A DNA stretch of 64,000 bases from a virus (taxonomy: Duplodnaviria; Caudoviricetes). The notes under the pieces are model-generated. The model was given only the letters and a program-made list of their open reading frames with translations, made no database searches and was not told the origin of the DNA. Shown piece after piece: positions 18,701 through 33,638 of the stretch; positions within the stretch are counted from its first letter, which is position 1; each line of letters begins with the position of its first letter. The translations under genes were made by a program, and so were the position numbers. The stretch lies in IMG/VR virus record IMGVR_UViG_3300045594_000343, positions 3,370 to 67,369 of that record, one strand, 5' to 3'.

Positions 18701-18782
18701 GAAAAATCATTTTGTATGATAATATTAATATGGTTTACCATACAAAATATCTAGTAAAGAGGTTTCAGAATGGTATTCAAAT

Positions 18783-18816
18783 AAAAAAGCAAGCACATTA
18801 ACGTGCTTGCTTTTTT
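18783..18816. terminator. Bidirectional intrinsic terminator
   Basis: aaaaaagcaagcac-attaac-gtgcttgctttttt. Confidence 0.88.
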
Positions 18817-19262
18817 ATCTTGTCATAATCAAGTACCACTTTTAAGTCTGCATCAAGTTCTGACATATATCCTATTTGTGCACAATGACCTTGACCATCC
18901 ATTTGCATAACGTATAACAAATCACCGTGTATATCAATTGCCATAATTTGTTGGTTAAAGTAGTCTTTTTCTACAACATATTTAACATTTTCTTTGGTTG
19001 ATATTTTTAATCCAATATCAATTAAAAAATATACCAACTCTTCAATAATTTCCTCATCAATTCCAAAATAGAACTGAAAATCCTCTTGCAAATCGCTGTC
19101 ATATATAAAATCTTCATTATCTAATATCAGATTATGTTCCTTTGTATATTTTATAATTCGAGCTACATACATTTCCCAATTTGATTTTAATTTTCTATCT
19201 ATTTCATCGCGATGTTCTGCAAATTGTGTTAGATATAAATCTATCTCTTCTTTTGTAATCAT
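18798..19262 (-). CDS. Hypothetical protein
   Basis: 154-aa ORF with GAGGT RBS. Confidence 0.7.
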   Translation of the reverse strand: MITKEEIDLYLTQFAEHRDEIDRKLKSNWEMYVARIIKYTKEHNLILDNEDFIYDSDLQEDFQFYFGIDEEIIEELVYFLIDIGLKISTKENVKYVVEKDYFNQQIMAIDIHGDLLYVMQMDGQGHCAQIGYMSELDADLKVVLDYDKIKKQAR

Positions 19263-29016: not shown

Positions 29017-29036
29017 CCTTTTATTTATATTATATG

Positions 29037-29068
29037 AAAAAACAGCCTATATTTTTATAGGCTGTTTT
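29037..29068 (-). terminator. Intrinsic terminator with TATAAT fused to its U-tract
   Basis: aaaacagcctat-aaaaat-ataggctgtttttt-ca-TATAAT on the minus strand. Confidence 0.8.
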
Positions 29069-29075
29069 TATAAGA

Positions 29076-29402
29076 TTATCGATAGTCTAACACATATTTA
29101 GTTGCCATATATTTACCCTGGTTTAGTATATTTTTTTCTGCTCTATCTGCATGTGAAAACAAATCTCTATATATTTTCATTCCACGCATTTCCATTTGTT
29201 CAGCCACTTCATAATTATTATTTGCACTAGGTAACAAATAATATTTCGACTTATACAATTTATACGCCCATTCAAATTCATTCATTGTTTCTGTATCAAT
29301 TATATCGTCAACCAATCTCAAATGATAAATACTTGACCATTCTTCTTCTGTTCTCCTAGTTAAATCAACGTCTAAAACAACGTCCTCATTCTCCATAAAC
29401 AA
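29076..29402 (-). CDS. Hypothetical protein
   Basis: 108-aa ORF with GGAAGGAA RBS. Confidence 0.7.
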   Translation of the reverse strand: MFMENEDVVLDVDLTRRTEEEWSSIYHLRLVDDIIDTETMNEFEWAYKLYKSKYYLLPSANNNYEVAEQMEMRGMKIYRDLFSHADRAEKNILNQGKYMATKYVLDYR

Positions 29403-32046: not shown

Positions 32047-32583
32047 TTAAGAATCAAGTTTAGACCAATCGTCTTCCTCTTCTTTACTAATATCCGTATT
32101 AGAATCATCACGAAGCGATTCTTCAAATTCTTCATCGCTCATATCTGAATCCATTTCTTCAGAATCATACTGATGCGATTCGAAATCACCGGAAGCTATA
32201 ATATCAATCAATTCCTGTTTTACATTTGGGAACAAACGAATCTGTTCAGGCACTTCTGCTTTTGACTTAGCAAGGAACTTAGGCTCACTAGGCCACTTGT
32301 ATTGTCTCCCAGTTTCTGTCAACTCGCCCTTTGCATTATATCGCGGAATAATACCTTTTGCAAGCGCAATGTCAGCAACTTCATCAACATCATCTACATG
32401 TCTACCATCAAAATAAACCTTAAATTCTGCTGTCTTAAATGGTGAAGCTGTTTTGTTTTTCACAACCTTTACTCGAATTCCTTGTCCAACAACAACATCT
32501 TCTGCACCATGCTTTTCTTTCAACATTCCATCTGCGTTTTTTGATACGCGCAAACGCAAGGAACTATAAAATTTTAGTGCTTT
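32047..32583 (-). CDS. recA: RecA recombinase, exon 2
   Basis: KALKFYSSLRLRV...VKVVKNKTASPFKTAEF; acidic tail. Begins right after the intron-terminal G. Confidence 0.9.
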   Translation of the reverse strand, partial: KALKFYSSLRLRVSKNADGMLKEKHGAEDVVVGQGIRVKVVKNKTASPFKTAEFKVYFDGRHVDDVDEVADIALAKGIIPRYNAKGELTETGRQYKWPSEPKFLAKSKAEVPEQIRLFPNVKQELIDIIASGDFESHQYDSEEMDSDMSDEEFEESLRDDSNTDISKEEEDDWSKLDS

Positions 32584-32984
32584 CAAAATTTTTACAAACA
32601 GGCTCTTTATCCCATTAAACTTTTTCAAGAAAATTTCGGACTATATCTTCTGCTCATTTTCCATAAAATGAGAGTTTCACCGCACTCGTGGAGGATTTTA
32701 TCGCCATATCTTTCGATTTAGGCTTACCTCTAGTCTCTGAACACATAATAGCATTTCTGCTAATACTTTGTTGCTGATTATTTCCAACCATCCATTTTTC
32801 AAACATTCACGCTTACAATCTCTTGTTACGTTGTAGTATGGATATTGTTTTATGCCTTTCGGCAGAACCTTCCAGCAATTCACGGCGTTTTTTAACGTGG
32901 AAGCAAAGCTACGATTCTGTTTTTACAGTCATTATAATTATTTATTAATGCCCTGAATATAACACAATCTTACGCTATTTTTCT
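32584..32984 (-). ncRNA. Group I self-splicing intron (401 nt, no homing endonuclease)
   Basis: P GTGAATTGCTGGAA (32883-32870), Q AATCAGCAAC (32779-32770), R GTTCAGAGACTAG (32742-32730), S AAGATATAGTCC (32649-32638). P7 is GACTA/TAGTC. 5' exon ends in U, intron ends in G. IGS GCTTCCAC pairs with exon GTGGAGGT. Confidence 0.92.
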
Positions 32985-33638
32985 ACCTCCACCAGTAGTA
33001 GTGTTATCTCCCCACATTACGCCAATTTTTTCGCGTGTCTGATTAATGCAAATCAGTATACCTCCTGCATGTGCAAGCTTGCTTGTAACTCTACGCAAGA
33101 ACTGTGACATGTAACGAGCAACAAGACCTACAGTTTGTTTACCAGGCTCTGCTTCCAATTCTTCTTCAGGAACTAGCGCAGCAATTGAATCTAGTACAAT
33201 AACATCAACTCCTGCATCAATCAAGGCATCAATTACCTTGAATGTTTCCTGCAATGAACTCGGCTGTGAAATAACAAGATTGTCAACCTGCACTCCAAGT
33301 TTTTTTGCAAAAGAAGTATCAAAAGTGAATTCCAAATCAACATATGCACACAATCCACCATGTGACTGACAAGCTGCAATAATTTTTTGTGCAATCAATG
33401 ATTTACCACTTGATTCTGCACCAAACAACTCTACAACTCTTCCACGAGCAATTCCTTTTCCTGTACATGCTGAATCCAATGTAAGATAACCAGTTGGAAT
33501 ACAATCATATTCTTGCTGTGGAGCTTCACCTAAAATCTGAATAAGATTCTCCTTTTTAGTTGACTTGCTCAATGACTTCATTGCGCTTTTTAATGCTGAT
33601 AACTTTTTTGCTTGTGCTTTTTTATCAAAATCCTGCAT
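32985..33638 (-). CDS. recA: RecA recombinase, exon 1
   Basis: GRVVELFGAESSGKS (Walker A), VIVLDSIAALVP, INQTREKIGVMWGDNTTTGGG. Spliced product is 396 aa. Confidence 0.92.

Follow-up and report, generated by a model that had tools for sequence, protein, structure and literature searches.

Introduction

In recA, the sequence that encodes and flanks the L2 loop is a known hotspot of introns and inteins. Group I introns of recA, including ORF-less forms that retain remnants of a homing endonuclease gene (HEG), are already described in the literature (PMC2504315, PMC3239194). The intron in recA of Bacillus phage 0305phi8-36 encodes the endonuclease I-Bth0305I and has been studied experimentally (Taylor et al. 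2011, PMC3239194). [quoted passage not shown] This intron still splices, and its subgroup has been given as IA1/IA3-like (Tourasse and Kolsto 2008, PMC2504315).

In this study, we analyzed a 64,000-nt stretch of viral DNA (hereafter, the window), in which recA is interrupted by 401 nt. As in 0305phi8-36, a group I intron is found in recA of a large phage, in the region that codes for and flanks the L2 loop, and the sister introns of the window intron carry endonucleases of the same Vsr-like family. Unlike the 0305phi8-36 intron, however, the window intron possesses no ORF. The insertion sites also differ: the 0305phi8-36 intron follows TTC GGT GAT (the D of FGD), between D211 and N212 in the numbering of the window RecA, seven codons upstream of the window's site between G218 and K219. 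When the two cores were compared, blastn aligned only the 13-nt S element.

In being ORF-less with what appears to be a short 3′ HEG remnant (about 34 nt, against 39 bp), the window intron resembles that of the B. anthracis/B. cereus group (Ko et al. 2002), although the latter is located on a bacterial chromosome and not in a phage. It stands at the same stage of the mobile-intron life cycle as that splicing-competent intron. Homology across P3-P5 also links it to intron 2 of nrdE of Staphylococcus phage Twort (the I-TwoI intron; AF485080), a phage IA-type intron. In Twort, however, the host gene is that of ribonucleotide reductase, and the endonuclease is an HNH enzyme whose gene starts downstream of the matched P3-P5 segment, not in L1 as in the window's family.

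The recA gene of the window

The window is taken from an IMG/VR viral contig of 67,369 nt, most of which it covers. CheckV estimates this contig to be 14% complete; the genome would accordingly be several hundred kb in size. Full-length relatives of its RecA are encoded by contigs 404-420 kb long. Around recA lies a replication/repair module, with genes for a calcineurin-like phosphoesterase, a DnaG-type primase, a PIN-PhoH protein and an SF2 helicase. On the minus strand, the gene is divided as follows.

32985..33638, minus strand: recA exon 1, 218 codons, C-terminal end TTTGGG, last base U; matches Pfam RecA (E 3.9e-62)
32584..32984, minus strand: ORF-less group I intron, 401 nt, recognized by RF00028, by empty and filled alleles and by covariation
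32047..32583, minus strand: recA exon 2, 178 codons plus stop, N-terminal start KALKFY; matches Pfam RecA positions 206-258

The ORF that contains exon 1 (33638-32970) matches positions 2-207 of the Pfam RecA model, and the ORF that spans exon 2 (32628-32047, TTG start) matches positions 206-258 with E 8.5e-11. The amino acid identity of exon 1 is 71-73% to the relatives L002 and L003, and 57% to gp407 of the 498-kb Bacillus phage G, the closest cultured RecA. Both exons are open frames without a frameshift, and their identity to homologues is 57-73% over the whole length.

Exon 1 ends with GGT GGA GGT at 32985, the intron runs from A32984 to G32584, and exon 2 begins with AAA GCA CTA at 32583. 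The junction RNA is ACU GGU GGA GGU / AGA AAA AUA GCG UAA ... UUUUG / AAA GCA CUA AAA UUU UAU (slashes mark the intron ends), with an in-frame UAA at 32972-32970, four codons inside the intron. When the insert 32984-32584 is excised, GGT is joined to AAA in frame, the product reads TTTGGG-KALKFY, and a 396-aa RecA is obtained. In a MAFFT alignment with 10 full-length RecA homologues, the junction was free of gaps. The intron thus separates the GG(G) codons from the KALKFY codons, on the 3′ side of the L2 DNA-binding loop and inside the TTxGG-xALKFY motif. The first-pass annotation had read the two ORFs as exons and had placed the junction at GGT/AAA after removal of 401 nt. Both readings are borne out by the Pfam matches and the gap-free joint, and by the relatives L002 and L004, in which the gene is uninterrupted at this point.

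Empty and filled alleles

Viral contigs were scanned with exon 1, and tblastn with both exons then gave four informative loci. In L002 (71% amino acid identity), recA is uninterrupted and the matches of exon 1 and exon 2 abut. In L004 (57% identity), it is uninterrupted at the exact insertion point of the window. L005 possesses a 1427-nt insert at the exact site of the window, GGT GGT / AGACTT...ATTATG / AAA GCT, and L088, a metagenome contig whose RecA is 45% identical, possesses a 1437-nt insert at the same site. The cores of the L005 and L088 inserts show 74-79% nucleotide identity to the window intron. The flanking DNA of L004 (empty) and L005 (filled) is 98% identical. Thus, in closely related genomes, an intron of this family is present or absent at an identical site.

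In a protein search for longer RecA homologues, no near-identical intron-less or spliced version of the window RecA was detected (best, 73% identity), and an exact-pattern scan of the viral contigs with the spliced junction gave no match. No other core of the family is as divergent as that of the window, which is 65-75% identical to the others.

These alleles bear on whether recA is a true split gene, the halves of which are translated separately while the spacer stays in the RNA. The TTG-started ORF 32628-32047, which spans exon 2, would fit such an arrangement. However, this ORF starts within the P9 region of the ribozyme, and its N-terminus is without support from homologues. Moreover, the break cuts through the middle of the conserved TTxGG-xALKFY motif, the same point is uninterrupted in relatives, and the spacer carries a full covarying ribozyme structure (see below). 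We therefore regard a split gene as very improbable.

Similarity to group I introns

When the region was searched alone, it matched RF00028 (Intron_gpI) from end to end (model positions 1-253) with 33.4 bits and E 1.4e-6. P, Q, R and S were aligned, and P3-P9 appeared in order. The group I covariance-model search proposed in the first-pass annotation therefore gave a full match, but with a score below the RF00028 gathering score of 50 bits. Nothing was found in the whole window with Rfam at the gathering threshold; at E 0.01, unlike in the region-alone search, the whole-window search did not recover the intron. The low score is caused by large insertions (L1, the P5 extension and P7.1/P7.2), and default Rfam annotation consequently misses the intron. 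The experimentally studied 0305phi8-36 recA intron is similarly below the threshold (32.2 bits), the self-splicing Twort nrdE introns gave no match at E 0.01, and L092, a sibling of the window intron, exceeds the gathering score with 50.6 bits. Thus, the cut-off is not discriminating for phage introns.

Two other sub-threshold Rfam matches occur in the window, STnc430 (40 bits, 29032-29135, minus strand) and Thr_leader (36 bits, 18707-18819, plus strand). Both are below gathering, with E 0.005-0.008, and are probably spurious matches to AT-rich DNA.

Direct homology was detected as well. A blastn match of 42 nt (90% identity) was found to Twort nrdE intron 2, and an nhmmer profile of the intron family matched the same intron with E 4.8e-12. 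In exact-pattern scans of the viral contigs, two core patterns were found in the L003 and L005 contigs only, and the S/P9 segment gave no match. Exact P...Q pattern matches in a Deltaproteobacteria MAG (L094) and a SAR86 MAG (L095) were without Rfam or nhmmer support, and were therefore treated as chance.

Yersinia phage phiR1-37 contains an unannotated stretch with homology to P3-P5 of the family, in the gap between g335 and g336 (AJ972879.2, about 252393-252499; L085:2465-2571). The blastn identity is 81% over 73 nt and the nhmmer E value is 3.5e-12; Rfam at E 0.01 gave no match on this stretch. Judged from its sequence, a gene is probably split here by a group I intron that has escaped annotation.

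Additional family members were obtained from one metagenome pattern scan, and seven cores were aligned. From this alignment, RNAalifold recovered P3, P4, P5, the long P5 extension, P6 and P7.1/P7.2; P7, which forms a pseudoknot, and the P9 hairpin were added before the pairs were counted. Across the resulting 71 pairs, 97.5% of the cells are paired, and 32 pairs are changed on both sides. Slid controls gave 2-5 compensatory pairs against these 32, and none of 500 shuffles reached the observed value. In the window copy, nearly all core pairs are standard, and the unconstrained minimum free energy (MFE) fold forms P1 unaided.

The group I match might instead be a chance or compositional artefact of AT-rich DNA, with the insert being some other mobile element. 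The sub-threshold bit score and an MFE z-score of only -2.26 could be taken in this sense. However, the 32 covarying pairs, the sequence homology to a validated intron (Twort nrdE intron 2) and the precise insertion polymorphism are against an artefact, and we assign it a negligible probability.

Secondary structure of the intron

The intron is composed, in order, of P1 with an extended L1, P3, P4, P5 and its extension, P6/P6a, P7, P7.1/P7.2, P8, P9 with two inner hairpins, and the terminal G. Its elements are located as follows.

32985..32992, minus strand: exon strand of P1, GUGGAGGU; U32985 is the 5′ splice site; eight contiguous pairs with the guide
32910..32984, minus strand: L1 loop, with the in-frame UAA; putative remnant of a lost HEG
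32905..32909, minus strand: P10 guide GCUUU; five pairs with the exon 2 start AAAGC (32583-32579)
32897..32904, minus strand: P1 internal guide sequence, GCUUCCAC; the eight pairs end with U32985·G32904
32678..32887, minus strand: span of P3 (32887-32881 with 32684-32678); 100% paired, two compensatory pairs
32771..32878, minus strand: span of P4 (32878-32872 with 32777-32771); covariation in the seven cores
32867-32865 with 32784-32782, minus strand: P5, inside P4
32864-32853, minus strand: GAAA-capped hairpin, inside P4
32847-32785, minus strand: long P5 extension, including an ACAA-GAGA-UUGU hairpin; 11 compensatory pairs
32742..32770, minus strand: P6/P6a hairpin with a GAAA loop; compensatory change in seven of nine pairs
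32735-32731 with 32643-32639, minus strand: P7, GACUA with UAGUC; pseudoknot with P3; R and S elements
32691..32730, minus strand: P7.1/P7.2 extension, between P7 and the 3′ strand of P3; eight compensatory pairs
32650..32674, minus strand: P8 hairpin; a hairpin in every family member, with a different sequence in each
32584..32638, minus strand: P9 domain and 3′ G; outer stem, small hairpin, and hairpin 32616-32597 with loop AUAAAGAG; omega-G is 32584

The conserved elements are P-like AAUUGCUGGAAGG, Q-like AAUAAUCAGCA, R GUUCAGAGACUA and S AAGAUAUAGUCC, and P3 encloses P4-P6, the 5′ strand of P7 and P7.1/P7.2. The first-pass annotation had named the P, Q, R and S elements and P7, all of which are present, and P1 with its U·G pair at the splice site and P10 are formed exactly as it had described.

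P1 and P10 covary with the exon sequence, the guide doing so in seven relatives at two insertion sites. In L005, the exon strand is CAGGUGGU and the guide is GCUUCCUG; two distal P1 pairs are changed on both sides (exon CA.., guide ..UG). P10 has seven pairs in L005, compared with five in the window.

The three-part P9 domain can be folded in all family members despite unrelated sequences, and its inner hairpin is weak in the window copy. This inner hairpin (32611-32602 in the window) possesses a near-invariant 8-nt loop on a stem whose sequence is free to vary. The loop is AUAAAGAA in L005 and L091 and AUAAAAAG in L093, and it is found at the same position also in L090. It is a candidate for a tertiary contact.

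P7.1/P7.2 is a peripheral element of IA-type introns, and in the window intron it lies between P7 and the 3′ strand of P3. Many IA2 introns also possess P2 between P1 and P3. In the window intron, P2 is absent, the gap from the guide to P3 being only 9 nt (32896-32888). The assignment therefore stops at IA-like, without a finer subgroup.

The L1 loop and the homing endonuclease

L1 of the window intron measures 80 nt if counted up to the P1 guide strand and 75 nt if counted up to the P10 guide. No ORF of at least 62 aa was found in the intron, and its two ORFs (50 and 61 aa) both cross the conserved ribozyme core. ARAGORN detected no tRNA in the window, and hence none as intron cargo.

The introns of L005, L088, L003, L090 and L091 are 1.3-1.4 kb long, and ORFs of 341-344 aa were read in L005, L003 and L088. 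In L005 and L088, the Vsr-like endonuclease ORF (343-344 aa) occupies L1, between the 5′ splice site and the guide. Nucleotides 57-395 of the window intron align with nucleotides 1087-1422 of the L005 intron. On the L005 side, the alignment begins 34 nt upstream of the ORF's stop codon, which itself falls inside the guide sequence.

The three sister ORFs share about 28% mutual identity, with HTH-like repeats in the N-terminus and a DUF559-type C-terminus. With phmmer against PDB, a sister endonuclease alone missed I-Bth0305I. A profile of the three sequences matched PDB 3R3P, the catalytic domain of I-Bth0305I, with E 6.5e-4, followed by Vsr. Pairwise BLASTP between a sister endonuclease and gp29 of 0305phi8-36 gave E 2e-7, and tblastn of a sister endonuclease against the phage collection gave no match.

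Since the sister ORFs occupy the same place, the profile matches I-Bth0305I and Vsr, and the alignment with L005 begins near the end of the ORF, the interpretation of the 80-nt L1 as the scar of a lost HEG is well supported. The first-pass annotation had suggested such a scar with an in-frame stop; the UAA is indeed there, and the L005 comparison supports the suggested origin.

Two insertion sites in recA

Homologous cores occur at two sites in recA, 32 nt apart. Site A interrupts the V207 codon after its second base and holds the cores of L003/L086, L090, L091 and L092. Site B, after G218, holds those of the window, L005 and L088. The site A junction is GGCGU / ... GUAG / U AUG UAU, and the guides of the site A introns fit the site A exon.

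L004 (no intron), L005 (site B, with endonuclease) and L092 (site A, ORF-less) have flanks of 98-99% nucleotide identity and represent one phage species. The core of L092 shares 90.5% identity with that of L005, but only 79% with other site A cores, such as that of L090. Thus, the cores group by phage lineage and not by site. We regard as evenly balanced the proposal that one ribozyme lineage shifted between sites A and B recently, possibly repeatedly, with its guide being retargeted. Ectopic transposition, by reverse splicing or by a shift in endonuclease specificity, and gene conversion between co-resident twin introns are possible mechanisms of such a shift.

In L093, a 330-nt ORF-less intron (L093:995-1328) possesses a 5′ junction of the site A type and a 3′ end like that of site B. 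The surrounding recA is without the 10-11 L2-loop codons between the sites. We suspect that two adjacent homologous introns (twins) were collapsed into one during assembly, or that recombination has deleted this part of the gene.

In P0006, a 763-aa RecA that is 73% identical to exon 1 of the window, about 364 aa are inserted near residue 209, including a LAGLIDADG domain (PF03161). This insert is probably an intein, near intron site A. In the phage clade of the window, the L2-coding stretch is targeted by inteins as well as by introns.

Proposed splicing of the window intron

The recA gene is split at a defined junction by an insert with a covarying group I structure, and this insert has homology to endonuclease-bearing introns at a site that is empty in other alleles. 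Taken together, these results make it very probable that a 401-nt IA-like group I intron, which has lost the HEG from L1, interrupts recA of a phage-G-like jumbo phage. We infer that the window intron is catalytically active and is spliced in vivo.

In the proposed reaction, the guide GCUUUGCUUCCAC would first pair with the end of exon 1 to give P1, with U·G at the splice site, and subsequently with the first bases of exon 2 to give P10. An exogenous guanosine bound in P7 would attack after U32985. The freed exon 1 would then attack after the terminal G32584, so that GGU is joined to AAA and the 396-aa RecA is restored. In the predicted spliced RNA, ...GGTGGAGGT would be joined to AAAGCACTA with the loss of 401 nt. 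Ribosomes would be halted at the in-frame UAA, after four intron codons, and would not reach the ribozyme core. The ancestor was very probably a mobile intron with a Vsr-like HEG of the I-Bth0305I type in L1, the deletion of which left the 80-nt remnant. Without this gene, the window copy would be unable to home on its own.

A decayed group I intron that has lost splicing, with recA being a pseudogene or heading to loss, is the main alternative. It would be in keeping with the absence of the endonuclease gene, the divergence of the window core, the Rfam score below gathering, and the lack of L2 codons in recA of the relative L093. However, the exons of the window are intact and similar to homologues throughout, the core pairs are nearly all standard, and P1, P10, the U·G pair, the terminal G, R and S are all preserved. 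Moreover, the B. anthracis recA intron shows that an endonuclease can be deleted with splicing kept (PMC2504315). Decay is thus unlikely, and we favour a splicing intron. Its splicing may be reduced or protein-assisted, since the window core has diverged further than any other in the family and the inner hairpin of P9 is weak.

Implications

The recA intron findings do not overturn current understanding. What is new is modest: the insertion site differs from that of 0305phi8-36, and the intron family occupies two sites 32 nt apart. For annotation, recA of the window phage should be regarded as intact and not as broken; because default Rfam thresholds miss the intron, pipelines call the gene as two fragments. 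For the part of recA that codes for and flanks the L2 loop, the locus represents an intron family not described before and one more insertion site. The natural series of empty, endonuclease-bearing and ORF-less alleles at two adjacent sites could serve for the study of endonuclease loss and target change.
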